Assembly: GCF_051903065.1 (NCBI RefSeq) | Contig: NZ_CP178439.1 | Source: Escherichia coli | GTDB lineage: Bacteria; Pseudomonadota; Gammaproteobacteria; Enterobacterales; Enterobacteriaceae | Reading direction: 5' to 3' (one strand) | DNA length: 64,000 bases | Shown: positions 2,975-59,976 of the stretch, in pieces | How the letters are laid out: each line of letters opens with the position of its first letter | How positions within the stretch are numbered: the stretch's first letter is position 1 | Notes under the pieces: model-generated | The model's database searches: none | What the model was told of the DNA's origin: nothing | What the model saw: only the letters and a program-made list of their open reading frames with translations | Program-made: the position numbers and the translations under genes

Positions 2975-3220
2975 ATGAAAATTGAAATTATGGAATATAA
3001 CCCGGATTGGACAAAGAATTTTGAAGAAGAGAAAATAAAATTGCTCCATTTTTTCGGTTCTCATGCCGTAGCCATTGAACATATCGGAAGCACGGCGATA
3101 CCCAATCAACGGGCGAAACCGGTTATAGATATATTTATTGGCGTTTCGCCTTTTGCTGAACTACCTTTTATCAGCGCATTTTTAATGCAAAGGAGTATCA
3201 CCACACTCCGACAGATATGA
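2975..3220 (+). pseudogene. GrpB/UPF0157-like nucleotidyltransferase, N-terminal fragment
   Basis: 81-aa ORF with EHIGSTAIP...KPVIDI motif; about half the expected family length. Confidence 0.35.
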
Positions 3221-3688
3221 CAGGCAGATATTTGTTTGCAAAATATACAAATGAAGTTTGGACCCATAATCTTCTTGCTTTGGTGTAGGTATAATACCCA
3301 AAAACGAAGTTTATGCGGAACAGGATAACACCTCGAAATCGGAGTTTATATGGCTTCGTGGGGGAGTTATGTGTTTGAGCTTTGTCGCATTAACGCGAAT
3401 CAGGGGTTGACGGCAGAAATAGACTGGAATTACACTTCTTGGAGTCGGCGTTGCCGGAAAATTCTGATTGGATTAGTTGTTCGGGGTGCGAAAACAGTCG
3501 TAGTTCGGGGAAAAAACCGAATTTTGACCCAAAACCGCGAAAAACTCGAAATGACAGTTCCTATCAGTTTTCATAATGAATTAAAACAAAAAAATTAGGC
3601 TGCAAAGATAGGGAAAATGTGTCAATTTGCGTAAGTGATAATTAGTCAATTAAGATAAATGCTACTTTTGTAATCAAAGCAAAATGAT

Positions 3689-4480
3689 ATGAGCAAGATT
3701 TTTGGAATCGTAAATATAACCACCGATAGTTTTTCCGATGGAGGACTTTATTTAGATACAGATAAGGCAATTGAGCATGCTCTGCATTTGGTTGAAGATG
3801 GAGCAGATGTGATTGATTTGGGAGCCGCTTCCAGTAATCCTGATACAACTGAAGTGGGCGTTGTGGAAGAAATCAAAAGACTCAAACCTGTCATTAAGGC
3901 TTTAAAAGAAAAAGGCATTTCTATTTCTGTTGATACATTTAAACCTGAGGTTCAGAGTTTTTGCATAGAACAAAAGGTTGATTTTATTAATGATATTCAA
4001 GGTTTTCCTTATCCTGAGATTTATTCAGGCTTGGCAAAGTCAGATTGCAAACTTGTGTTGATGCACTCCGTTCAGCGAATTGGTGCAGCTACTAAAGTTG
4101 AAACGAATCCGGAAGAGGTTTTTACTTCCATGATGGAATTTTTTAAAGAAAGAATTGCTGCTTTAGTTGAGGCTGGTGTAAAGCGTGAACGAATTATTCT
4201 TGATCCGGGTATGGGCTTCTTTTTAGGCTCTAATCCAGAAACATCTATTCTTGTTTTGAAGCGTTTCCCTGAAATTCAAGAAGCTTTTAATTTGCAAGTA
4301 ATGATTGCAGTGTCACGGAAATCATTCTTAGGTAAAATAACTGGAACCGATGTGAAATCTCGTTTAGCACCAACTCTTGCAGCAGAAATGTATGCATACA
4401 AAAAAGGTGCAGATTATCTCCGCACCCATGATGTTAAGTCTTTATCAGATGCCTTGAAAATATCCAAAGCCCTAGGTTAG
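3689..4480 (+). CDS. sul3: Dihydropteroate synthase Sul3 (sulfonamide resistance)
   Basis: 263-aa ORF starting MSKIFGIVNITTDSFSDGG, recognised as Sul3; DHPS fold motifs. Confidence 0.9.
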   Translation: MSKIFGIVNITTDSFSDGGLYLDTDKAIEHALHLVEDGADVIDLGAASSNPDTTEVGVVEEIKRLKPVIKALKEKGISISVDTFKPEVQSFCIEQKVDFINDIQGFPYPEIYSGLAKSDCKLVLMHSVQRIGAATKVETNPEEVFTSMMEFFKERIAALVEAGVKRERIILDPGMGFFLGSNPETSILVLKRFPEIQEAFNLQVMIAVSRKSFLGKITGTDVKSRLAPTLAAEMYAYKKGADYLRTHDVKSLSDALKISKALG

Positions 4481-4701
4481 TTTTATTTTTTTAGCTTTCT
4501 AAATGAATATGCTATACTTGCTCTGAAGTTGTGTTGGCGTACTTGACTTAGGTCTGGATCTTTCGAACTGTTACTAAGAGGGTAATCATAGCCAAACATA
4601 AACTGGAAATGTCCTAATTCTAAACCTGTTCCAATACCTACACTATGGTGATGCTGCCAACTTACTGATTTAGTGTATGATGGTGTTTTTGAGGTGCTCC
4701 A

Positions 4702-4977
4702 GTGGCTTCTGTTTCTATCAGCTGTCCCTCCTGTTCAGCTACTGACGGGGTGGTGCGTAACGGCAAAAGCACCGCCGGACATCAGCGCTATCTCTGCTCT
4801 CACTGCCGTAAAACATGGCAACTGCAGTTCACTTACACCGCTTCTCAACCCGGTACGCACCAGAAAATCATTGATATGGCCATGAATGGCGTTGGATGCC
4901 GGGCAACCGCCCGCATTATGGGCGTTGGCCTCAACACGATTTTCCGCCATTTAAAAAACTCAGGCCGCAGTCGGTAA
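4702..4977 (+). CDS. insA: IS1 InsA
   Basis: 91-aa [43 protein letters not shown], zinc-finger InsA. Confidence 0.85.
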
Positions 4978-5399
4978 CCTCGCGCATACAGCCGGGCAGT
5001 GACGTCATCGTCTGCGCGGAAATGGACGAACAGTGGGGATACGTCGGGGCTAAATCGCGCCAGCGCTGGCTGTTTTACGCGTATGACAGGCTCCGGAAGA
5101 CGGTTGTTGCGCACGTATTCGGTGAACGCACTATGGCGACGCTGGGGCGTCTTATGAGCCTGCTGTCACCCTTTGACGTGGTGATATGGATGACGGATGG
5201 CTGGCCGCTGTATGAATCCCGCCTGAAGGGAAAGCTGCACGTAATCAGCAAGCGATATACGCAGCGAATTGAGCGGCATAACCTGAATCTGAGGCAGCAC
5301 CTGGCACGGCTGGGACGGAAGTCGCTGTCGTTCTCAAAATCGGTGGAGCTGCATGACAAAGTCATCGGGCATTATCTGAACATAAAACACTATCAATAA
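4896..5399 (+). CDS. insB: IS1 InsB reading frame (expressed as InsAB' by -1 frameshift)
   Basis: Overlapping downstream ORF inside IS1. Confidence 0.75.
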
Positions 5400-14162: not shown

Positions 14163-14570
14163 ATGAATGAAAACTCAGTAATCTTAATAAGTTTATTTTG
14201 GTTTTTTTTGGGATCGAGTGTTGTAGCTGGTTTTATGGATGCATCATTATATTGCTGGATTTTTGCAGCCATAAGCGCATTGTTTCTTCTTTCGGTGATA
14301 CAAACACCAAAGGAGTTAACGGTATCTATTAGTCATATGACAAGCAAAACGCTGATCTCAAAGACAGATGATGGATACACATTTAGCATTTCACCTTACG
14401 GAGACGGGTACCGCTTATCAGTCTCGCCTGAAAATCGTCACAATGGTACCCAAAGCTTTGACGGCTGGTTCCCACGTTTTTTTTCCGAACCACAGTATGC
14501 CAAATCATCTTTAACTAAATTTCTCGGTGAGTCCTTAGTATGGGAAGAAGATTCAAGTAATGCTCTATGA
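14163..14570 (+). CDS. Hypothetical membrane protein (135 aa)
   Basis: ORF with two N-terminal hydrophobic segments. Confidence 0.45.
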   Translation: MNENSVILISLFWFFLGSSVVAGFMDASLYCWIFAAISALFLLSVIQTPKELTVSISHMTSKTLISKTDDGYTFSISPYGDGYRLSVSPENRHNGTQSFDGWFPRFFSEPQYAKSSLTKFLGESLVWEEDSSNAL

Positions 14571-14615
14571 GATTACTTATTATAAATTTTTCTATTAATC
14601 TCCATGGAGTGATAT

Positions 14616-14870
14616 ATGAATTTGGCCTATTTTTTATTTTTGTCTATAACTGTTATGCTTACGAGCTTTATTATTAAATCACTTGTCGTATTGGTAAAGT
14701 TCAAATTACTTCGTGATGAACGTCTCGAATATACCAGCAATAAAAATATTGATGAGATGTACGATTTAATGAATGCGAAGGAAGAAATCCTCATAAGGCA
14801 TCATAAGCAGATGTTGGCATTGCATCTTTCACTATTAATATTCGTTCTATTTATTGCTTACATTTACTAA
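14616..14870 (+). CDS. Small membrane protein (84 aa)
   Basis: ORF with N- and C-terminal hydrophobic helices. Confidence 0.4.
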   Translation: MNLAYFLFLSITVMLTSFIIKSLVVLVKFKLLRDERLEYTSNKNIDEMYDLMNAKEEILIRHHKQMLALHLSLLIFVLFIAYIY

Positions 14871-14907
14871 AAATAATTTTATTCAACATTTCAACAAAGG
14901 GTTTTCA

Positions 14908-15195
14908 ATGGAAAGCTTCGAAACTGAACAAATGATTCAATATGCTTTCTACATAAATATCGTAATAACGACTGGTTTGGCATGGTTTTGCTTGCGGTCA
15001 GGATTGCATTACAATTTTTTCAGAAAAGCAGAGAGTGCCAGAACAAAAGGGCTGAGTAGTACCTCTACTGAACACGGTCCAGCAATAGTGAGACTAAAGA
15101 AGCTACAAGCATTAGTAGATTTTATTAGTAACTGTGCTTTTCTAATCCTTTCAATTGGCACAGCTTATATTTTGTATGTTTGGAGCCACAGTTAA
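14908..15195 (+). CDS. Small membrane protein (95 aa)
   Basis: ORF 14854..15195, internal ATG at 14908 with purine-rich upstream. Confidence 0.4.
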   Translation: MESFETEQMIQYAFYINIVITTGLAWFCLRSGLHYNFFRKAESARTKGLSSTSTEHGPAIVRLKKLQALVDFISNCAFLILSIGTAYILYVWSHS

Positions 15196-15231
15196 CTCAT
15201 ACGAGGTAACTTCGGCAGGTAACAACTTCTA

Positions 15232-15462
15232 ATGCAGGACTTTAATAACTCTAAGGGATTCTACATGAAAAAAGACGATCTAATTACGCGTTGTAAATTA
15301 CTTAAAGGCGAACGCGATGAGTCTATCTTTACCATATTAATTGGGATAGTAGTAAAGCTGGGGCTGGTAGGCCTGGCATTCTATCTGTTGCTTGGTTCCA
15401 CGATTGATTGGTCAAGCTGGAAAACTTATGCCGCCATGTTGATCTTGGGAGCATTTCTCTAA
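15232..15462 (+). CDS. Small membrane protein (76 aa)
   Basis: ORF with C-terminal hydrophobic helix. Confidence 0.4.
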   Translation: MQDFNNSKGFYMKKDDLITRCKLLKGERDESIFTILIGIVVKLGLVGLAFYLLLGSTIDWSSWKTYAAMLILGAFL

Positions 15463-15574
15463 AATCTTGAACCTTTTTTCACTCATTACAAGCCATGACC
15501 TAGTGCGTAGATCATACGATCTTTAAACCTTATGTCATTGATTTATAAGTACATATAACAAAGATTATGTTAAA

Positions 15575-15594
15575 TACTGTATGTATGTACAGCA
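15575..15594. promoter_or_regulatory. LexA (SOS) box-like site TACTGTATGTATGTACAGCA
   Basis: CTGT-N8-ACAG consensus read directly, about 200 bp upstream of gene 15799. Confidence 0.5.
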
Positions 15595-15798
15595 TCAACA
15601 GTTGCCCCCCTCATATTGAGGTAATTGCTACATTCATACCACTATTCTTCTTATAGTATCGACATCCTGAATTATTGCACCCTACTGCTTTGTCTTTAGC
15701 TGTTCCGAATTAAAATTCATTGCTCAATTTGGATCACATGACGATCAGCGTATTCCTTTGCTTTATCAAAGTTAAGTTTTTAAAACATAAGATATGTA

Positions 15799-16260
15799 AT
15801 GACAAATTCTCAATCTGATTTTCCTTTGAACGATCAAAATTTTCAGGCAGATTTGCTGAAAATCAAAAAGGTTTTCGCCGACCTTATAACGCAGGCATCA
15901 GATGGTAAGATACCCATAAGGTCTTCTCATGTACACGGCTTACACCATTTCGAGGAGCTCTACATCCGGGCAAGAGCAGGCATGTGTTCGGTCCTGGGAT
16001 ATCCGGTCATGGTTGTTTCAACTATCTCAGTTAAAGAGCCCGGCACAGGCATTTTTAGAGCGCTTCTTGCAGAATTGAAATGTATTGCAGATGAACAAAA
16101 TTACATTTTGAAAATTGAAAATGTACTGCCTCCCCTATTCCGCAAATACCTTATTCAAGAAGGTTTTGTTTTCCCAGGTGAACCTTGGATGTGTGGTTCC
16201 GGCTATTGGTTTAAGAACCCACAAGTACTTCATGAAAATATTGAGTTATTATCTGTTTAA
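15799..16260 (+). CDS. Hypothetical protein (153 aa)
   Basis: ORF downstream of the LexA-like box. Confidence 0.5.
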   Translation: MTNSQSDFPLNDQNFQADLLKIKKVFADLITQASDGKIPIRSSHVHGLHHFEELYIRARAGMCSVLGYPVMVVSTISVKEPGTGIFRALLAELKCIADEQNYILKIENVLPPLFRKYLIQEGFVFPGEPWMCGSGYWFKNPQVLHENIELLSV

Positions 16261-16289
16261 GTCGATCTAACAATTTCACTGGAGCTAAC

Positions 16290-16697
16290 ATGTCCCCGGA
16301 ATTGGTATCAGACATTGCAAGAGTGGCGCATGAAAAGCTACTTTCAATTTTAACGGAGTGCGGCATAGAGAAGACGGCAGGCACTTGCCTTTTTGCAAGC
16401 TATCTTGTGTGTTATTTAGCAAAAACTAAAGGTCTAGATGCTGTTGTCCGTGGGGGTAACGGTGCAGATGATGGCGGTATATTTATAGAGTGTGGTGGCT
16501 TTGGCCATTATTGGTGTGAGTTGAATTTCGAAGAAGTGCAATATTATATTGACATCACTTCCGAACAGTTTGGGTTTCATCCATACATAGTGAAACTCGC
16601 CAACGATATAACAGGATGGCCTCGATATATTCCTGGTGATCAGGAAACGGTCGATAGTCATTTAGAACAATTATTACGCGACGGCTATACAGAATAG
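16290..16697 (+). CDS. Hypothetical protein (135 aa)
   Basis: ORF 29 nt after the previous gene, probably co-transcribed. Confidence 0.5.
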   Translation: MSPELVSDIARVAHEKLLSILTECGIEKTAGTCLFASYLVCYLAKTKGLDAVVRGGNGADDGGIFIECGGFGHYWCELNFEEVQYYIDITSEQFGFHPYIVKLANDITGWPRYIPGDQETVDSHLEQLLRDGYTE

Positions 16698-16747
16698 GCT
16701 GCGTATACCCTATCGCAGCCTTTCAGGCTCTTAACCCTTGTGACCTG

Positions 16748-17275
16748 TTAACGGAACCACTCAGGATGACGCTGCCGATCAACTTTGATAACCTGCGAAT
16801 TAAATTCAACGACATCCGCTGGAGTAAGCATTAATTCATCAGGATTTACAATAAATGGTCTTAAAACCACTTCGCCACCGTCTTCTTTTGCACCGTAGAT
16901 ATTAATAAGAAAGTGCAGTCGTTGATTTCCTTCAGCATTGCGTTGCCATTCTCTAAAAGTCAAAGTTTGTTTAATATAGTTTGTTAAAAGAAATGCGAAT
17001 TCAGATTCTTCCGTTTGTGAGATACCGATTTTGTTAGACATTTTTTTTAGTATCTTTCCGAGCATGGACACACAGGCATCTAGACTTAACGATGTTGAAA
17101 TTTTGGTCGTATTAAAATCCTCCTGCGAAAGTGAAATCATCCATGTATTATCTTTATGATAGTCGGTAATATAAATAAAATGAGATGTAAAAGGCGTTGA
17201 GTGATTGAACTCTCCTAAGTTCCATCCATACTGACTCACTGTATTTGAGCTAAGTTCTTTGTCGGTAATGTTCAT
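16748..17275 (-). CDS. Hypothetical protein (175 aa)
   Basis: ORF, AT-rich. Confidence 0.5.
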   Translation of the reverse strand: MNITDKELSSNTVSQYGWNLGEFNHSTPFTSHFIYITDYHKDNTWMISLSQEDFNTTKISTSLSLDACVSMLGKILKKMSNKIGISQTEESEFAFLLTNYIKQTLTFREWQRNAEGNQRLHFLINIYGAKEDGGEVVLRPFIVNPDELMLTPADVVEFNSQVIKVDRQRHPEWFR

Positions 17276-17441: not shown

Positions 17442-17828
17442 CTACTTGAATTTTTGATAGCTTATGGTTGTTTTATGTTCTTTGTGATACGCATATGTCA
17501 TCTTCTCTTTCCAGTACCAATCTTGTAGATCCTGCAAGTCTAGCCCATTTTTCTCACGTATGCTTTCGTGTAATTCGCTAAGCGCGAGTTTATCATTAGG
17601 TTTATAAATGGCTAATTTTTCTTCAAATAAATCCAGCCAACGTTTCCCCATCTTACGACGCAAAACAAACACCATCGTGATAAATGTAATGAAATGCACA
17701 GCAATTAGTTCCAACTTATGCGATTGCTGACCAGATAAAATTACTATTGTAACAACAGGGATGGCCGTATATAAAGCAATCAAAGCGACCATAAGTTGGT
17801 ATGGTTTTTCCCGTATTACCATGTTCAT
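17442..17828 (-). CDS. Hypothetical membrane protein (128 aa)
   Basis: ORF with two predicted TM helices. Confidence 0.45.
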   Translation of the reverse strand: MNMVIREKPYQLMVALIALYTAIPVVTIVILSGQQSHKLELIAVHFITFITMVFVLRRKMGKRWLDLFEEKLAIYKPNDKLALSELHESIREKNGLDLQDLQDWYWKEKMTYAYHKEHKTTISYQKFK

Positions 17829-26566: not shown

Positions 26567-27826
26567 CTACGCTTTTACAACGAGTAATTCATCCCAGCGG
26601 GTCGTATATCTCGGTGATAGCATGGCCTGTTTCATACGAAAATCCTGTTGAATGCCTTCCCCCAGCAAAAACAGAGCTCCGCGCTTTTCTTTATTGAACC
26701 GGTCCATAACTTTCATCAGTGCCTGACTGCCAGGCCTGGCCGGGCGCTCATCAAACAGGCTGAGTTGCTCTGTGCCGTCAGTCATAGCGGAGAGCATTAC
26801 CCCAGCTTTCGCATACGCTATCCCGGGTTTGTAAATGCGGTTCAGGATGGTCATGGCTGCATCAACCAGATCGCGGGTGTCCTGTGTAGCGGTAAGCGGC
26901 TCGATACCACAATTGCTGTAGCGGTTTTCACCTTGCGCATAATTGCTGCTCTGAATGAAGACTGTGATTTGACGGGTCCACGAGCCATCCTTGCGCAGCT
27001 GCTCTGCCGCCCGGGCGGTAAAAAATGAAACTGCCTCATGTAGCTTGCCTATCTCATTAAGGCGCTGACCAAAACTTCTGGAAACGATAATCTGTTGCCG
27101 GACAGGAGGGGATTCATGCAGCCGGAAACATGGTTCGCCATGCAGTTCCCGCCAGGTACGCTCGATTTCAACGCCAAAGCTTTTACGTAAAAAGCGAACG
27201 TCGCTATTATAAAAATCACCGGCAGTGATGATCCCGAAAGCCGACAGGCGTTCACTGATCTTTTGACCAATACCCCATATTTCTCTGGTACTGATAAGGC
27301 CCAGGAGCTTCCTGATCCTGGCCTGATCAGTCAAAACTACAACCCCGCCTGTAGCTGCCCATCGTTTGCTCGCATAGGTGCATAATTTAGCCAGGGTTTT
27401 GGTGCTTGAACACCCCACACCACAGGTAAGGGACAGATTATGAAGAAGTGTACTTCTGATCAACCGGCCGTAATCTTCATAATCTATTATCTTGTTCATG
27501 TTTTTCAATAACATGAAATTTTCATCTATGCTATATCGACTCGATTGAGGCGCGAAGCTTTCCAGCGTTTCATGGAAGCGATTTGAGTAGTCTTCATACA
27601 AAGTAAAGTTAGAGCTCCGGACTTCGATCTGGTGTTGCTGAATCAAATCCCTGCACTTAAAAATTGGGGTCCCACGCTTAATACCAACGCTTTTAGCCAG
27701 TTTATTCATTGCAATGACGGACGAATCGTTATTGCTGGCTATGATGAGCGGCTTTTTTGCCAGCTTGGGATCCATCGCACACTCAAATGCCGCATAGGCC
27801 CCGTTAATATCAACGTGCATGTACAT
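26567..27826 (-). CDS. umuC: Y-family translesion DNA polymerase subunit, UmuC/MucB/ImpB-like
   Basis: 419-aa protein, MYMHVDINGAYAAFE N-terminus typical of UmuC; overlaps the upstream umuD-like gene. Confidence 0.8.
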   Translation of the reverse strand: MYMHVDINGAYAAFECAMDPKLAKKPLIIASNNDSSVIAMNKLAKSVGIKRGTPIFKCRDLIQQHQIEVRSSNFTLYEDYSNRFHETLESFAPQSSRYSIDENFMLLKNMNKIIDYEDYGRLIRSTLLHNLSLTCGVGCSSTKTLAKLCTYASKRWAATGGVVVLTDQARIRKLLGLISTREIWGIGQKISERLSAFGIITAGDFYNSDVRFLRKSFGVEIERTWRELHGEPCFRLHESPPVRQQIIVSRSFGQRLNEIGKLHEAVSFFTARAAEQLRKDGSWTRQITVFIQSSNYAQGENRYSNCGIEPLTATQDTRDLVDAAMTILNRIYKPGIAYAKAGVMLSAMTDGTEQLSLFDERPARPGSQALMKVMDRFNKEKRGALFLLGEGIQQDFRMKQAMLSPRYTTRWDELLVVKA

Positions 27827-28244
27827 GGCTAAACTGATTCAGTGCAAAGGTGACGACGCCCCATATCTCAAGGGATTCGGGATTTACACGTATCGGCTTA
27901 TAGGCTGGATTAGAAGGCATCAAAAGCAGCTCAGGATACGTGTGTAAGATCTTTACCGTGAACTCTCCATCCACCAGCGCAACGACGATAGAGCCGTGTC
28001 GTGCCGTTAAAGACCGATCCACAACCAGAATAGCGCCATCATTGATACCGGCATTGATCATACTGAGGCCCGCCGCCCTGACAAAGAAGGTTGAGGGGCG
28101 GTTACGGACTACATATTCATGCAAATTTAATTCATTATCTTCATGCCCGGCGCACGGACTCATCACTCCACAGCTCAGTAAATCACTGAAAAAAGGTGCC
28201 ATTTCGTAAGGCTTGTTGCTAATGTGCTCAAGGATAACAGACAT
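27810..28244 (-). CDS. umuD: UmuD/MucA/ImpA-like S24 peptidase (LexA-like self-cleaving)
   Basis: 144-aa protein with S24 LexA-like fold motifs (GLSMINAGINDGAILVVDRS). Confidence 0.8.
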   Translation of the reverse strand: MSVILEHISNKPYEMAPFFSDLLSCGVMSPCAGHEDNELNLHEYVVRNRPSTFFVRAAGLSMINAGINDGAILVVDRSLTARHGSIVVALVDGEFTVKILHTYPELLLMPSNPAYKPIRVNPESLEIWGVVTFALNQFSHVHAR

Positions 28245-28263
28245 AGCTACACTCGAATTCTCA

Positions 28264-28283
28264 TACTGTATGTATAAACAGTA
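28264..28283. promoter_or_regulatory. LexA box TACTGTATGTATAAACAGTA upstream of umuD-like gene
   Basis: Perfect CTGT-N8-ACAG, 20 bp upstream of the start codon. Confidence 0.75.
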
Positions 28284-29955: not shown

Positions 29956-30775
29956 GGCACTGTTGCAAATAGTCGGTGGTGATAAACTTATCATCCCCTT
30001 TTGCTGATGGAGCTGCACATGAACCCATTCAAAGGCCGGCATTTTCAGCGTGACATCATTCTGTGGGCCGTACGCTGGTACTGCAAATACGGCATCAGTT
30101 ACCGTGAGCTGCAGGAGATGCTGGCTGAACGCGGAGTGAATGTCGATCACTCCACGATTTACCGCTGGGTTCAGCGTTATGCGCCTGAAATGGAAAAACG
30201 GCTGCGCTGGTACTGGCGTAACCCTTCCGATCTTTGCCCGTGGCACATGGATGAAACCTACGTGAAGGTCAATGGCCGCTGGGCGTATCTGTACCGGGCC
30301 GTCGACAGCCGGGGCCGCACTGTCGATTTTTATCTCTCCTCCCGTCGTAACAGCAAAGCTGCATACCGGTTTCTGGGTAAAATCCTCAACAACGTGAAGA
30401 AGTGGCAGATCCCGCGATTCATCAACACGGATAAAGCGCCCGCCTATGGTCGCGCGCTTGCTCTGCTCAAACGCGAAGGCCGGTGCCCGTCTGACGTTGA
30501 ACACCGACAGATTAAGTACCGGAACAACGTGATTGAATGCGATCATGGCAAACTGAAACGGATAATCAACGCCACGCTGGGATTTAAATCCATGAAGACG
30601 GCTTACGCCACCATCAAAGGTATTGAGGTGATGCGTGCACTACGCAAAGGCCAGGCCTCAGCATTTTATTATGGTGATCCCCTGGGCGAAATGCGCCTGG
30701 TAAGCAGAGTTTTTGAAATGTAAGGCCTTTGAATAAGACAAAAGGCTGCCTCATCGCTAACTTTGCAACAGTGCC
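29956..30775 (+). mobile_element. tnpA: IS26 copy 4, transposase CDS 30019..30723, Asn at residue 184
   Basis: Both IRs present; flanks ctttgcgt / cactgatc do not match. Confidence 0.95.
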
Positions 30776-31220
30776 CACTGATCCGCATGCCCGTTCCATA
30801 CAGAAGCTGGGCGAACAAACGATGCTCGCCTTCCAGAAAACCGAGGATGCGAACCACTTCATCCGGGGTCAGCACCACCGGCAAGCGCCGCGACGGCCGA
30901 GGTCTTCCGATCTCCTGAAGCCAGGGCAGATCCGTGCACAGCACCTTGCCGTAGAAGAACAGCAAGGCCGCCAATGCCTGACGATGCGTGGAGACCGAAA
31001 CCTTGCGCTCGTTCGCCAGCCAGGACAGAAATGCCTCGACTTCGCTGCTGCCCAAGGTTGCCGGGTGACGCACACCGTGGAAACGGATGAAGGCACGAAC
31101 CCAGTGGACATAAGCCTGTTCGGTTCGTAAACTGTAATGCAAGTAGCGTATGCGCTCACGCAACTGGTCCAGAACCTTGACCGAACGCAGCGGTGGTAAC
31201 GGCGCAGTGGCGGTTTTCAT
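30776..31220 (-). pseudogene. intI1: Class 1 integron integrase intI1, N-terminal 148 codons, truncated by IS26
   Basis: [49 protein letters not shown]... ends at the IS26 boundary. Confidence 0.85.
31105..31133 (+). promoter_or_regulatory. Integron cassette promoter Pc, hybrid type (-35 TGGACA, 17-bp spacer, -10 TAAACT); P2 lacks the GGG insertion
   Basis: Hexamers read at 31105..31110 and 31128..31133 inside intI1. Confidence 0.6.
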
Positions 31221-42538: not shown

Positions 42539-44440
42539 TTATGCAGCTTGATGATCTGAAGTGTTACCGGAAGTATCTTCGGTTCGTTTTTTGTTTGTGA
42601 TGGATTCACTTTTATCTCGCAAGGCTGAGTCTATGACGTTAAACACCTTTTCCCACCGAGAAATCCAACCGCATATAGGTTGAACACGACATTTTTCCAG
42701 GAAGAAATTTAATAAGTTAGTTTTTTTATTATCTTGCACTTTGAATGGTTCAATTACATCATCGGCATCAACAGATTTTCCTCCGATAAACCACGACGGA
42801 TGGGTTTCCATTGCGTCAGAAATGAAATCGTCAGGGAAGAGGCCTTCAATAGCAAAACCACTTCTTACAGAAATATAGTCTTTATTTGACTCAAATCTAA
42901 TTTGTTTTTTACCAAAGTAGCTTTGTAATCTGGTTCTTTCTTTGACCCCAGCTTCATCACCGTCAAAAACAGATATTACGGGGACATCTTTAGAAATAAA
43001 CTCGTAGCACCCTTTCAAGAATCCCCCAAGTTGACTGACTCCACCAAACTCATCAACTTTAGCACTCCTCAGAAAAGGCCATCTGTTCTTAAACTCATCA
43101 TCTTCAGATGTCAATTTCAATATTGATTCTATATATTGTTTGTCGGTGATACCTTCAACGAAAACTGCACTACTTGATATGTTAAAGAAATCAGAAAATC
43201 TGACCCCAAGATTTTCTCTTATGCTTGCAACTGCATTAAATCTTTTTTCATGCTTTTTATCTTTTGTAACACCGGCGTCATCTTTATATAACTCAATGAT
43301 CTTACTTGGCTCATCACTGACAAATGATAAGGAATGAGTTGTAATAAGAACATAAGCAACATCCATCAGTGATTTGAAAATGTGATTACATGACCGGCCT
43401 AATGAGGGATGCAAGAAAGACTCAGGCTCCTCAACCATCCAAATCGTTTTCTTACCTAGAGTAAGTTTTCTCTCTGAAATAGATTTAAATGAAGAAAATA
43501 AAGATAAGCATTGTAGCCCCATACCTTTACTCGATATCACATTCTCAATAGTATCTTTTATTGAAACCTCAAAGCGACCAAATAACTCATCAAGAGATGG
43601 CGGAGCTTTAATAATAAAGCTACAGTCATCTATACCGCTTAGAATCATTTCATTTGTTATCTTTTCAGATACTTCCAACAGTTTATCATGAATCACTTGA
43701 ACCGATGTTTTCATGGCTGAAGCTACTTCACTCCTAACATATGGAACTAATAGATTATGATATATATCATCAATACTTTTTGACGATGGTATATACACAC
43801 ACTCAAAACTAGAAAGTATTTTTTCTATGAACCTTCTTTCAACAGATGTATACATGGAGGAAGTTACTTCAGGTTTCCTCTTGTAACCTTTAAAGACAGT
43901 GTAAAAGTAATTGTTTTTATTAGATATTGTCAGATGTACGGTCACTTCGTTTTGAGGTGACTTTAACCTGGAGTCATCAATCATGTTAAACAGCTGCAAA
44001 TATCTATCTCTCAAACTTAGCTTTCTGCCTCTTGATTGAGTTGGTTTTGATTCTTGTTGTTTAGAGCTGCCATCATCAAATGAAATAGAATTACTAGGCT
44101 CTTCTTGCTCCCCTAAAACACCAAGTTCAATAATCGAGTCATCATCGTCATCATCATCGTCTTGGCTCAAATCCTCAGAGACATCATCTAGCTCACTTTC
44201 AGAAAAAGTAAATCTTACAGCAAAACTAGTTTGTCCTTGCTTAACACCATGTGGCTTATCTTTTTCATAGTCATATAAGTCAGGATTAAATTTTCCTTCA
44301 AAAAAAACCCTCATAGCTTTTAATAGGTTTGTTTTACCACTGTTGTTTTGCCCAACAATGGTTAATCCATTAAAGTTATCAGAGGATATCTCCCCTGAAA
44401 TAGACCTATACTGAGAAACTTTAAATGATACTATTTCCAT
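42539..44440 (-). CDS. OLD-family ABC-type ATPase fused to a TOPRIM nuclease domain (633 aa)
   Basis: Walker A GQNNSGKT, Walker B IWMVEEPESFLHP, H-loop ITTHS, then TOPRIM-like VFVEGITDKQ and FDGDEAG; eight-Asp run; AT-rich. Confidence 0.7.
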   Translation of the reverse strand: MEIVSFKVSQYRSISGEISSDNFNGLTIVGQNNSGKTNLLKAMRVFFEGKFNPDLYDYEKDKPHGVKQGQTSFAVRFTFSESELDDVSEDLSQDDDDDDDDSIIELGVLGEQEEPSNSISFDDGSSKQQESKPTQSRGRKLSLRDRYLQLFNMIDDSRLKSPQNEVTVHLTISNKNNYFYTVFKGYKRKPEVTSSMYTSVERRFIEKILSSFECVYIPSSKSIDDIYHNLLVPYVRSEVASAMKTSVQVIHDKLLEVSEKITNEMILSGIDDCSFIIKAPPSLDELFGRFEVSIKDTIENVISSKGMGLQCLSLFSSFKSISERKLTLGKKTIWMVEEPESFLHPSLGRSCNHIFKSLMDVAYVLITTHSLSFVSDEPSKIIELYKDDAGVTKDKKHEKRFNAVASIRENLGVRFSDFFNISSSAVFVEGITDKQYIESILKLTSEDDEFKNRWPFLRSAKVDEFGGVSQLGGFLKGCYEFISKDVPVISVFDGDEAGVKERTRLQSYFGKKQIRFESNKDYISVRSGFAIEGLFPDDFISDAMETHPSWFIGGKSVDADDVIEPFKVQDNKKTNLLNFFLEKCRVQPICGWISRWEKVFNVIDSALRDKSESITNKKRTEDTSGNTSDHQAA

Positions 44441-48482: not shown

Positions 48483-50100
48483 GAGTGACGGGCACTGGCT
48501 GGCAATGTCTAGCAACGGCAGGCATTTCGGCTGAGGGTAAAAGAACTTTCCGCTAAGCGATAGACTGTATGTAAACACAGTATTGCAAGGACGCGGAACA
48601 TGCCTCATGTGGCGGCCAGGACGGCCAGCCGGGATCGGGATACTGGTCGTTACCAGAGCCACCGACCCGAGCAAACCCTTCTCTATCAGATCGTTGACGA
48701 GTATTACCCGGCATTCGCTGCGCTTATGGCAGAGCAGGGAAAGGAATTGCCGGGCTATGTGCAACGGGAATTTGAAGAATTTCTCCAATGCGGGCGGCTG
48801 GAGCATGGCTTTCTACGGGTTCGCTGCGAGTCTTGCCACGCCGAGCACCTGGTCGCTTTCAGCTGTAAGCGTCGCGGTTTCTGCCCGAGCTGTGGGGCGC
48901 GGCGGATGGCCGAAAGTGCCGCCTTGCTGGTTGATGAAGTACTGCCTGAACAACCCATGCGTCAGTGGGTGTTGAGCTTCCCGTTTCAGCTGCGTTTCCT
49001 GTTTGCCAGCCGGCCCGAGATCATGGGGTGGGTGCTGGGCATCGTTTACCGCGTCATTGCCACGCACCTGGTCAAGAAAGCGGGCCATACCCACCAAGTG
49101 GCCAAGACGGGCGCGGTCACCCTGATCCAGCGTTTTGGATCGGCGCTCAATCTGAATGTTCACTTCCACATGCTGTTTCTCGACGGTGTGTATGTCGAGC
49201 AATCCCACGGCTCAGCGCGTTTCCGCTGGGTCAAGGCGCCGACCAGCCCAGAGCTCACCCAGCTGACGCACACCATCGCCCACCGGGTGGGTCGCTATCT
49301 GGAACGGCAAGGCCTGCTGGAACGGGATGTCGAAAACAGCTATCTGGCCTCGGATGCGGTGGATGACGACCCGATGACACCCCTGCTGGGGCACTCGATC
49401 ACTTACCGTATCGCTGTCGGTTCACAGGCGGGGCGAAAGGTGTTCACTTTGCAAACTCTGCCGACCAGTGGTGATCCGTTCGGTGACGGGATTGGCAAGG
49501 TAGCCGGGTCCAGCCTGCACGCCGGCGTGGCGGCCAGGGCCGATGAACGCAAGAAGCTCGAACGGCTGTGCCGGTACATCAGCCGCCCGGCGGTATCCGA
49601 GAAGCGGCTGTCGTTAACACGAGGCGGCAACGTGCGCTACCAGCTCAAGACGCCGTACCGGGACGGCACCACGCACGTCATTTTCGAACCATTGGATTTC
49701 ATTGCAAGGCTGGCCGCCCTGGTACCGAAGCCCAGAGTCAACCTAACCCGCTTCCACGGGGTGTTCGCACCCAACAGTCGGCACCGGGCGTTGGTCACGC
49801 CGGCAAAACGGGGCAGGGGCAACAAGGTCAGGGTGGCTGATGAACCGGCAACACCAGCACAACGGCGAGCGTCGATGACATGGGCGCAACGGCTCAAGCG
49901 TGTTTTCAATATCGACATCGAGACCTGCAGCGGCTGCGGCGGCGCCATGAAAGTCATCGCCTGCATTGAAGACCCTATAGTGATCAAGCAGATCCTTGAT
50001 CACCTGAAGCACAAAGCCGAAACCAGCGGGACCAGGGCGTTACCCGAAAGCCGGGCGCCACCGGCTGAGCTGCTCCTGGGTCTGTTTGACTGACGAGCCT
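48483..50100 (+). mobile_element. ISCR2 (IS91-like rolling-circle element), transposase CDS 48600..50093; element boundaries approximate
   Basis: 497-aa IS91-family transposase; a second partial copy of the first ~300 bp at 52767..53072 defines the 5' boundary. Confidence 0.75.
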
Positions 50101-52772: not shown

Positions 52773-53072
52773 CGGGCACTGGCTGGCAATGTCTAGCAAC
52801 GGCAGGCATTTCGGCTGAGGGTAAAAGAACTTTCCGCTAAGCGATAGACTGTATGTAAACACAGTATTGCAAGGACGCGGAACATGCCTCATGTGGCGGC
52901 CAGGACGGCCAGCCGGGATCGGGATACTGGTCGTTACCAGAGCCACCGACCCGAGCAAACCCTTCTCTATCAGATCGTTGACGAGTATTACCCGGCATTC
53001 GCTGCGCTTATGGCAGAGCAGGGAAAGGAATTGCCGGGCTATGTGCAACGGGAATTTGAAGAATTTCTCCAA
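52767..53072 (+). mobile_element. Partial ISCR2 (5' ~300 bp only)
   Basis: Matches 48483..48790; diverges after GAATTTCTCCAA. Confidence 0.8.
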
Positions 53073-58686: not shown

Positions 58687-59976
58687 TTAAGCTTGCTGCT
58701 CAGTTTGGTTCCGGTGCTGAAAAACCTGCCAACGGTGCTTTAGGAATTCAGTATTGATGGGTTTACGCAGCGGCTTAATAAACTCTCCTTGATATGCCGC
58801 TAAATCATGATCTACCGCCAAAGCTTCAGCGAGAATGTTAACCTCCAACGTCACCGGATGAATGGCAATCATGTTTGCGTCGAAAAGATCGTGTATATCA
58901 TGGCGTAAGAGCAACCCATTTGTATAATGGTCTACTCCTCCGTTACGATGCTCCATCAGATGAGCAGCCTCAGTGCGCTGGCGCAGTCTAGAGCCTGTAA
59001 TCACACATTGGTCATAACAGTTGTTGCGGACGGCTTCTGCAAATGAGGCCTGATCTGGTCGTGTCTCGACAGTTGTCTTACTACCCTTACGCTTACCCGG
59101 TACAGTAGTTTCATCAGGAATATTCGGCTGAAGCTCCTTTTCTTCTATACCATCAGTCTTCATAGCGACCATAATCGCGGCCGGTGGAGATTTAGGCTGA
59201 TCTTCCTGCGATCTTTCGCGGCCACCAACTGGATACCCTAGAAAACCCTCAATGATCTCTAGTGGAGGTAATGTAGCGTTTGAACGTGCATAAATAGCGA
59301 ACTCTGCGGCACGTCCGCCGGGAATATATCTACGTACCAGTATTGGAAGAGAGGCTTCTTCATCTGGTTCCTCTTTTTCCGACAGGATTATTCGTTCGGT
59401 GAGACGGGCTGAATTTTTTTTCATTTCACTCAACAGTCTATTGCGTTCTTTTACCTTTCGGTCATTATCCTCCAACATCTTACGATGACTAACCTTAGCC
59501 AGATGGTCTTCCAGTTCCTGTATATATTCGGGATCGATAGTGTCAATTAGACCGAACGCCATCAACCGCTCCCCCCTTGTTTTACAAGATTCTAGCCGAA
59601 CGCGAATGTACTCCTTACGCTTGGCCATCAAATGTTCTTTTTGTTTTTTTTCTCGAATTACACGGAGCTGAGTATTGTAATTAGAATAAACGGTTTCGCT
59701 ATTCTGCTCTGTCTCTAGAGCAAATTTTTGTAGGTGTTCACGTAGTTTTTTACGGGTATTTTTGGGGGCATGCATTACGGTACGCTCAATGTATGAGCCT
59801 GTGCAGCGTAAAGAAAGTACAGTTTCAGCATGGGAATAACCAGCATTGAGACGATAGCGGGCAATTTTAAGCAAATTATTAAAGTGTGCACCATTACATA
59901 TACCTAGTTCTTCCAAGACACGACGTTCTCTATCATTAATAGATGGATGGTTAATATCTTTTACTTTGTTTGCCAT
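58687..59976 (-). CDS. HNH endonuclease domain protein with charged, probably coiled-coil N-terminal region (429 aa)
   Basis: C-terminal AAHLMEHRNGGVDHYTNGLLLRHDIHDLFD HNH-like motif. Confidence 0.55.
   Translation of the reverse strand: MANKVKDINHPSINDRERRVLEELGICNGAHFNNLLKIARYRLNAGYSHAETVLSLRCTGSYIERTVMHAPKNTRKKLREHLQKFALETEQNSETVYSNYNTQLRVIREKKQKEHLMAKRKEYIRVRLESCKTRGERLMAFGLIDTIDPEYIQELEDHLAKVSHRKMLEDNDRKVKERNRLLSEMKKNSARLTERIILSEKEEPDEEASLPILVRRYIPGGRAAEFAIYARSNATLPPLEIIEGFLGYPVGGRERSQEDQPKSPPAAIMVAMKTDGIEEKELQPNIPDETTVPGKRKGSKTTVETRPDQASFAEAVRNNCYDQCVITGSRLRQRTEAAHLMEHRNGGVDHYTNGLLLRHDIHDLFDANMIAIHPVTLEVNILAEALAVDHDLAAYQGEFIKPLRKPINTEFLKHRWQVFQHRNQTEQQA

Follow-up and report, generated by a model that had tools for sequence, protein, structure and literature searches.

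The stretch of Escherichia coli DNA analysed here, 64 kb long and referred to below as the window, carries a LexA box, TACTGTATGTATGTACAGCA, at positions 15575–15594, ahead of two plus-strand open reading frames (ORFs), ORF1 (15799–16260) and ORF2 (16290–16697). We propose that the box holds down transcription running rightward through a leader of about 180 nucleotides (nt) into ORF1 and ORF2, and that these are induced jointly by DNA damage and probably also by conjugative entry of the plasmid. We assign this reading a probability of about one half. The box is probably one more SOS-switched unit of the plasmid, as had been suggested by a first-pass annotation that noticed a LexA-box-like site before two hypothetical backbone genes. 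Plasmid units controlled by LexA are already well known, and what is new is an undescribed instance with uncharacterised cargo. What was unexpected is that, where modules join, LexA boxes adjoin XerD-type ends with single-base precision, which suggests a previously undescribed link between the SOS response and Xer-associated gene exchange in Enterobacterales.

The LexA box and the dif-like site that it abuts

The box, a palindrome assigned to neither strand, is located inside a 336-nt gap between the end of a 76-amino-acid (aa) ORF at 15462 and the start of ORF1. It matches the E. coli LexA consensus TACTGTATATATATACAGTA at 17 of 20 positions and scores 24.1 bits with a position weight matrix trained on 20 E. 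coli LexA sites, which span 13–27 bits. The reported site is thus confirmed with three mismatches, in an intergenic position and with both ORFs downstream as described. Sites differing from the consensus at three positions or fewer occur only here and at 28264–28283 in the 64 kb, and none occurs in shuffled sequences; the looser pattern CTGT-N8-ACAG has six occurrences in the window, where shuffling predicts 0.65. The palindrome CTGT-N8-ACAG with an AT-rich spacer is that of gammaproteobacterial LexA operators, and the positions contacted by LexA are conserved among relatives of the box. The host belongs to the Enterobacteriaceae, which use this LexA motif, and this supports the assignment. 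Judged by motif and conservation, we regard the 20-mer as a genuine LexA operator, and it is likely that LexA binds it in vivo.

The box and the XerD arm of a dif-like (pdif-type) XerC/XerD site, on the plus strand at 15548–15575, overlap by a single base, the first of the box and the last of the arm. The site has the 11-6-11 arrangement of XerC arm, spacer and XerD arm, with the C arm AGTACATATAA (15548–15558), the spacer CAAAGA (15559–15564) and the D arm TTATGTTAAAT (15565–15575). The D arm agrees with the XerD consensus at all 11 positions and is the sole perfect XerD arm in the window, and the C arm matches GGTGCGCATAA at 7 and AGTGCGCATAA at 8 of 11 positions. Dif-like sites, including those with the spacer CAAAGA, are targeted by the IS1202-family insertion sequences (ISs) ISKpn21, ISSen13, ISLad2 and ISKpn65, which insert 3–5 bp from the C side, on HI plasmids as elsewhere (PMC10132070). 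Table 8 of that paper contains GGTGCGCATAA-CAAAGA-TTATGTTAAAT, with which the spacer and D arm of the window agree. Some copies of the site have an IS1202-family element at this distance from the C side. One such copy, in pHCM1 (L006), has the same 29 nt, set 3 bp (CTT) away from the insertion-sequence side with its ISNCY/IS1202-family transposase gene, and the plasmids L002, L004 and L007 are analogous. We considered whether the 29 nt to the left of the box, which lie beside transposase genes in these four plasmids, are the terminal repeat of an ISNCY element, and rejected this because PMC10132070 shows that such sequences are dif-like sites targeted by the IS1202 family. A secondary integron core site, for which GTTAAAT fits the pattern GTTRRRY, was set aside; an XerD arm covers all copies.

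To the right of ...GTTAAAT, the window has one sequence, the IncF plasmid L005 another and L008, a diverged IncHI-like contig, a third, and at least nine different right flanks are joined to this repeated module-exchange point. From these comparisons, the dif-like site at 15548–15575 appears to be a module-exchange boundary, and the presence of different right flanks at one boundary is an indirect indication of recombination by XerC/XerD. Directly upstream of the site, at 14163–15462, four small ORFs (135, 84, 113 and 76 aa) run in the same direction and look hydrophobic on inspection; the one that was searched gave no family match. In both L005 and L008, the 76-aa gene and a further 113 nt are conserved, as far as the D arm.

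Exchangeable modules and their cargo

More than 1,100 large enterobacterial plasmids contain sequence matching this region, with an identity of at least 99% in about 650 of them. The records examined are typed IncHI2/IncHI2A (pSTM6-275, for example), and the genes surrounding the box are all labelled as hypothetical proteins in matching records. The plasmid is of the IncHI2 multidrug-resistance type, and in the window AT-rich IncHI2 DNA is interspersed with GC-rich resistance segments. An ORF for a 240-aa transposase recurs many times, and the identical transposase sequence is labelled IS26-family in a related record. ORF1 and the box occur together in about 650 IncHI2-type records.

The box was also found beyond this near-identical set. 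A second type of left flank, common to about 30 plasmids, adjoins a block of MutS-like, universal stress protein (Usp) and cation:proton antiporter genes and ends in ...GTGCTTAAC-ATAAGTTAAAT, a non-canonical site with a 1-nt spacer and a D-arm match of 9/11. The window's own box, leader, ORF1 and ORF2 stand at the end of this flank in L100 and behind a left-flank version just 75% identical in L107, with box and leader identical in both. At the end of the second flank, L014, L104 and L099 carry TGCTGTATG(C/T)ATATACAGTA and then two genes, a 60-aa ORF and an ORF1 homologue of 142 aa, and L098 carries GGCTGTATATGTATACAGTG, followed by four other genes; L101 is an intron-bearing variant, and L102, L103 and L106 have the flank without a box. 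All six box variants (window/L100/L107, L014, L104, L099, L098 and L101) have the same CTGTAT and TACAG, with changes only in the two outermost bases and in the AT-rich spacer, although the sequences to their right are unrelated. The left flanks of L100, L014 and L098 are 98–100% identical and their boxes are different, and three left flanks that are unrelated to one another, those of the window, L100 and L107, precede identical boxes, leaders and genes. It is the right-hand module that the box variants follow, the pattern expected of a functional operator on the cargo side; the alternative that the box is part of the left-hand element was rejected, since the variants co-vary with the right flank and not with the left.

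The three diverged box-led modules each carry an ORF1 homologue with about 45% identity. In L098, the module consists of a 105-aa ORF, a member of a second partner family (described below), the ORF1 homologue (44.5% identity, E 1e-33; profile E 1.7e-61) and a DpdC-like gene. The L014/L104 module contains the 60-aa ORF and the ORF1 homologue; a downstream partner gene is suggested by L009, and none was matched in L104. Homology between the leaders of the three module types was rejected, as they are no more alike than shuffled sequences. L098 itself is a K. pneumoniae IncFIB/IncHI1B plasmid, in which the LexA box (20.4 bits) lies 53 nt upstream of the four-gene module (3219–5240); the DpdC-like protein (PADLOC E 8.7e-43) hints at a link to 7-deazaguanine DNA modification. 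In L099 (about 2985–3019) and L101 (about 2769–2800), the end of a group II intron (ltrA) is flush with the LexA-box palindrome, on opposite sides and in opposite orientations, and the palindrome may serve as a hairpin-type target of the intron.

Two further sites have a canonical dif-like sequence next to a LexA box. The IncHI2 plasmid L150 contains AGTGCGCATAA-CGAGGA-TTATGTTAAAT, then TACTGTATGTATGTACAGTA and a window-type leader with few substitutions, which is near-identical to that of the window as far as ...TTTATCAAAGTTA, where the cargo changes (about 15775 in the window). L113, with ATTGCGTATAA-CGATCA-TTATGTTAAAT and a 26.3-bit box, comes from a metagenome scan for a D-arm end followed by CTGT-N8-ACAG, a pattern that imposes the spacing seen in L113 and that otherwise returned mostly generic matches. 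A scan of a genome collection with TTAAATNCTGTATNNATNTACAG was discarded as unspecific because AT-rich flanks naturally extend the LexA motif; it returned mostly ordinary SOS boxes of SAR86 and other proteobacteria.

ORF1 (153 aa) is predicted by AlphaFold2 (pLDDT 91, from an alignment of 24 sequences) to have a GNAT-like alpha/beta fold of the small acyltransferase type. Its loop K79-E-P-G-T-G84 (KEPGTG) resembles GNAT motif A (Q/R-x-x-G-x-G/A), with Lys replacing Gln/Arg; G84 is invariant across the 24 sequences, and the C-terminal motif CGSGYW is specific to the family. Searches of curated profiles gave no Pfam match at E ≤ 1, GNAT profiles included, and no NCBIfam match at E ≤ 0.1. The family is narrow and is carried on large Enterobacterales plasmid contigs. 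A Foldseek search against viral models retrieved uncharacterised proteins of large Serratia, Dickeya and Erwinia phages (22–34% identity), and the only match in PHROGs is a weak one to a family of unknown function.

ORF2 (135 aa) has a predicted transglutaminase-like/papain-like fold (AlphaFold2 pLDDT 95.7), with Cys33 at the N-terminus of a helix and His73 and Asp88 on the following strands. An exhaustive profile search gave 267 cluster representatives; Cys33 and His73 never vary, and Asp88 does so only rarely. ORF2 has no Pfam match, one of 61 relatives matches Transglut_core weakly (E 0.0018), and the profile found nothing at E ≤ 1 among PDB sequences. The homology searches proposed by the first-pass annotation yielded relatives of both proteins and a Pfam match for neither. 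Relatives of ORF2 sit amid small hypothetical genes of mobile elements, and fusions weakly hint at Lar and RMF.

Homologues of ORF1 are regularly paired with a small protein with the motif order Cys...His...Asp. This partner is ORF2 in the window, L100, L107 and L012, and a second family (ECDGH...PHxWI...DYRLR) in L003 (2950–3447), L008 (3660–4070), L009 (3444–3860), L013 (3841–4254), L015 (2591–3004) and L098 (3615–4124). The second family, in which C-D-G-H, P-H-x-W and D-Y-R-L-R are invariant, occupies the position of ORF2 in the window. A relationship between the two partner families found no statistical support in a profile comparison (probability 1.4%). The earlier guesses of an anti-SOS or toxin-like function found no backing: profiles of toxin–antitoxin systems, PsiB, and defence and anti-defence proteins (Pfam, PADLOC, PHROGs) matched neither ORF1 nor ORF2. 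The layout of GNAT/ribbon-helix-helix (RHH) toxin–antitoxin pairs is also absent, with no DUF1778/RHH partner gene and a Cys-His-Asp protein as the neighbour; a real GNAT/DUF1778 pair is present in L005 for comparison. Going by sequences and predicted folds, neither protein looks like an anti-SOS protein or a canonical toxin. Neighbours of ORF1- and ORF2-family genes include an orphan C5 methylase, a nuclease, DUF1173 and DUF4942 proteins, the DpdC-like gene of L098, and a faint DUF6884 match in L013. Based on these neighbours and on the distribution in plasmids and large phages, we speculate that ORF1 and ORF2 modify a host or defence component or act on DNA-related metabolism; our guess is that, during establishment or stress, they would modify a small molecule or a protein of the host or of a defence system.

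Proposed regulation and alternative explanations

The box, leader and genes may be described as an exchangeable plasmid module in which the box comes first, the leader second and the cargo last, and which is attached to a dif-like site at the XerD side of the latter. In the undamaged cell, host LexA on the box would hold down rightward transcription into the leader, ORF1 and ORF2. DNA damage would lead to self-cleavage of LexA, as plausibly would the entry of the plasmid as single-stranded DNA. After the loss of LexA, ORF1, the putative GNAT-like acyltransferase, and ORF2, the putative Cys-His-Asp transglutaminase-like enzyme, would be co-expressed. Induction on conjugative entry is proposed because plasmid DNA that arrives in single-stranded form is established to set off the SOS response of the recipient (Baharoglu et al. 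2010, as reported by a citing source). A possible promoter would have its −10 element, TATGTT, in the XerD arm and its transcription start inside the box. ORF2 is preceded by GGAG and separated from ORF1 by 29 nt, and the two are presumably co-transcribed. The transcription unit likely ends at an inverted repeat assigned to neither strand (16697–16723), in which GGCTGCG (16697–16703) and CGCAGCC (16714–16720) are followed by TTT. The repeat lies between ORF2 and the convergent minus-strand ORF at 16748–17275, and it was read directly, since its 10-nt loop is outside the limits of the terminator scan. The convergent ORF (175 aa) and its neighbour at 17442–17828 (minus strand, 128 aa) have no family assignment; the only matches of the 175-aa protein, to iSTAND and PADLOC PDC-M24A, are below threshold.

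Several observations weigh against control of ORF1 and ORF2 by the box. The box is 204 nt from the start codon of ORF1, and the stricter promoter scan of the plus strand between 15463 and 15798 found no promoter. On the plus strand, no promoter overlapping the box reaches 9 of 12 consensus matches. The best rightward candidate, at 15542–15571, is weak (−35 TTTATA at 15542–15547, 18 nt, −10 TATGTT at 15566–15571); it scored 7.5 in the lenient scan and was absent from the stricter one. A minus-strand candidate at 15564–15591 (−35 TGTACA at 15591–15586, in the box, 16 nt, −10 CATAAT at 15569–15564) has 9 of 12 consensus matches, and its function is doubtful because no minus-strand gene lies downstream. 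Overlap of operator and promoter is thus limited to weak promoter-like matches across the box on both strands, and the stretch just upstream of ORF1, common to the box-less L003, could hold a promoter of its own. The box and leader of L150 head unrelated genes (92, 540 and 158 aa, with no Pfam matches) and are therefore a unit of their own, the genes neighbouring the box in L113 are transcribed towards it, and no LexA box was present in the flanks retrieved for the ORF1-family modules of L003, L004, L008, L009, L012, L013 and L015. Every copy or variant of this box that was found adjoins an XerD-arm-type ...GTTAAAT end, and the association could therefore be with the Xer site and not with the genes. 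The window-type copies are all at least 99% identical and therefore provide no independent evidence of conservation. About 440 IncHI2-type records, an Enterobacter-rich lineage represented by L002, have no box, leader or ORF1 and retain ORF2 with about 95% identity. The box and ORF1 are therefore not core backbone, and by this comparison the ORF1 and ORF2 genes are part of a variable island, which qualifies the earlier description of them as backbone genes. In L002, a different segment (3087–3543), with a small hydrophobic ORF by eye, replaces ORF1, leader and box, and the match to the window starts again at 16247, shortly ahead of ORF2. A literature search for LexA binding or expression at these genes found none, and one for IncHI2 accessory genes under SOS control, or for LexA boxes adjacent to dif-like sites, found nothing relevant. 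SOS control of the two genes, as put forward by the first-pass annotation, is thus favoured by the strong box, its invariant contact positions and the link to the ORF1 family, and it is weakened by the 204-nt distance and the lack of a convincing promoter.

Some of these observations could be explained if the box and the leader were a portable SOS promoter or small-transcript cassette, the product of which, a small RNA or a peptide, is encoded in the leader, with ORF1 and ORF2 using their own promoter near 15758–15790. The segment of box and leader (15575–15775) has discrete boundaries and precedes unrelated cargo in L150. Homology to the box-less L003 starts at about 15771, only about 25 nt upstream of ORF1, and a TTGCTT-17-TAAAAC-like element can be read just 5′ of the ORF1 start codon. 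The Rcd RNA, transcribed beside the Xer site of ColE1 cer, is a precedent. However, the leader (15595–15775, plus strand), which travels with the box, has no Rfam match at E ≤ 1, its RNA fold is not better than those of shuffled sequences (z-score +0.45), and none of the small ORFs listed in it is convincing, as a hydrophobic peptide or otherwise. The leader as an RNA or peptide element was dropped for these reasons. In addition, the terminator scan found no plus-strand terminator to separate the leader from ORF1, and the leaders of the three box-led types are unrelated, yet all three modules hold ORF1 homologues. We consider such a cassette unlikely.

It is less likely still that the box acts on the adjacent Xer site, instead of or in addition to transcription, with LexA hindering the binding or activation of XerD and SOS gating recombination for dimer resolution or module exchange. 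The box begins at the last base of a perfect XerD arm, and the one-base spacing recurs at the canonical 11-6-11 sites of L150 and L113, in the latter of which the box-side genes point towards the box. The recurrence of ...GTTAAAT as an exchange point with its many right flanks would also fit. However, the spacing in L113 was imposed by the search pattern, most of the canonical dif-like sites seen (L002–L009) have no box, and the box-bearing sites of the L100 type are non-canonical, with 1 nt between the C-like and D arms and a D arm matching at 9/11. The co-variation of the box with the cargo side also speaks against an action on the Xer site, for which the literature searched offers no precedent. 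Very unlikely, in our view, is a palindrome without LexA function here, either a module-borne relic or a hairpin hotspot for mobile elements. The position of the box exactly at a recombination junction, the group II introns inserted flush against either side of the palindrome, the near-clonality of the window-type copies and the roughly 440 IncHI2-type plasmids without a box would be accommodated by it. Against it, variation among the six box variants avoids the LexA-contact arms, scores of 20–27 bits are far above chance, and single-stranded DNA of the window copy would form a weak hairpin (−2.8 kcal/mol, z −1.1). LexA repression of the leader, ORF1 and ORF2 is the reading that we retain.

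A broader conjecture, which we hold to be improbable, is that in IncHI-type plasmids the LexA operator one base from the XerD arm couples Xer recombination to SOS. LexA would block or modulate XerD, and damage or conjugative entry would open the site and switch on the cargo. If true, Enterobacterales would possess an SOS-gated, Xer-serviced cassette system analogous to the LexA gating of integron integrase. IncHI2 plasmids are major carriers of mcr, blaCTX-M, oqxAB and metal resistance genes, and SOS is induced by many antibiotics and by the entry of conjugative DNA. A further SOS-switched unit on these plasmids would lengthen the list of antibiotic-triggered plasmid functions. It would also point to a testable role for a pair of GNAT-like and Cys-His-Asp enzymes that is common to large plasmids and large phages.

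Other SOS units of the window and comparison with known systems

The window contains several other units with LexA boxes, as the first-pass annotation had anticipated: a umuDC-like operon, intI1 and two ISCR2 boxes. The second canonical box that it described, TACTGTATGTATAAACAGTA (28264–28283, assigned to neither strand, 27.3 bits), was recovered 20 nt upstream of the umuDC-like operon (26567–28244, minus strand), in which a Peptidase_S24 (umuD-like) gene is followed by an IMS-family (umuC-like) gene. The box CTGTTTTTTTGTACAG (31231–31250) is 11 nt upstream of a truncated intI1 (30669–31220, 183 aa), with a dfrA-type gene on its other side. Two identical LexA-like boxes, GACTGTATGTAAACACAGTA (22 bits), are located at 48563–48582 and 52847–52866. 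The former is 18 nt 5′ of the start codon of a 497-aa IS91-family (ISCR2-type) transposase (48600–50093), and no transposase domain was detected at the latter. SOS control of ISCR transposases has been reported in a 2025 preprint (bioRxiv 10.1101/2025.11.21.689736). Apart from SOS boxes, the window has a 487-aa minus-strand ORF (37471–38934) that matches the Pfam eukaryotic-type glutathione synthase family (GSH_synth_ATP, 7.5e-61), an unusual plasmid cargo beside an IS110-family transposase gene. A 633-aa AAA_15/AAA_21 ATPase (42539–44440) and a 429-aa HNH_2 endonuclease-domain protein (58687–59976), both on the minus strand, may be products of defence-type genes.

The box shares with the classical LexA operators of recA, umuDC and sulA, and with the umuDC/mucAB-type unit of the window (26567–28283), the 20-bp palindrome of the TACTGT-N8-ACAGTA type, the AT-rich spacer, a score in the functional range and an enterobacterial host. 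In contrast to these operators, it is 204 nt from the first start codon, compared with 20 nt for the umuD-like gene, it has no clear promoter overlap, and its cargo consists of two uncharacterised enzyme-like proteins and not of repair functions. In class 1 integron intI1 and the ISCR transposases (10.1101/2025.11.21.689736), an SOS box on a resistance plasmid likewise makes a mobile-element function responsive to damage, and both types are represented in the window (31231–31250; 48563–48582 and 52847–52866). Their boxes, however, are within about 20 nt of the recombinase or transposase start, whereas the box described here heads a module without a recombinase and abuts an Xer site.

The dif modules (pdif) of Acinetobacter and the dif-like sites of HI plasmids (PMC10132070) have the same 28-bp 11-6-11 site with a perfect XerD arm, ISs of the same ISKpn21/ISSen13/ISLad2 type by the C side (in relatives of the window), and different modules joined to it. 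Unlike the Acinetobacter modules, the window has one site in 64 kb and no inverted pair bracketing the module. A LexA operator next to the D arm of a dif-like site is undescribed in the literature searched. ColE1 cer is an Xer site with the regulated Rcd transcript starting right beside it. Its likeness to the site described here is the combination of an Xer site with an adjacent regulated transcript, which is proposed for the box. The leader, however, has no similarity to Rcd or to another Rfam family, and regulation would be through LexA and not through the multimer state.

The cargo has likewise been compared with known enzymes. ORF1 differs from the GNAT enzymes AcrVA5, an anti-CRISPR protein, and TacT/AtaT, toxins that acetylate tRNA, in that it matches no GNAT Pfam profile and has an additional N-terminal helix and the family-specific CGSGYW; unlike that of TacT/AtaT, its partner gene is not an RHH/DUF1778 antitoxin. 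ORF2 shares its predicted fold and the conserved order of Cys, His and Asp with LapG, SseI, TglA, arylamine N-acetyltransferases and the uncharacterised Atu2299. It differs from these enzymes in its length of just 135 aa without accessory domains and in lacking a significant Pfam or PDB sequence match.

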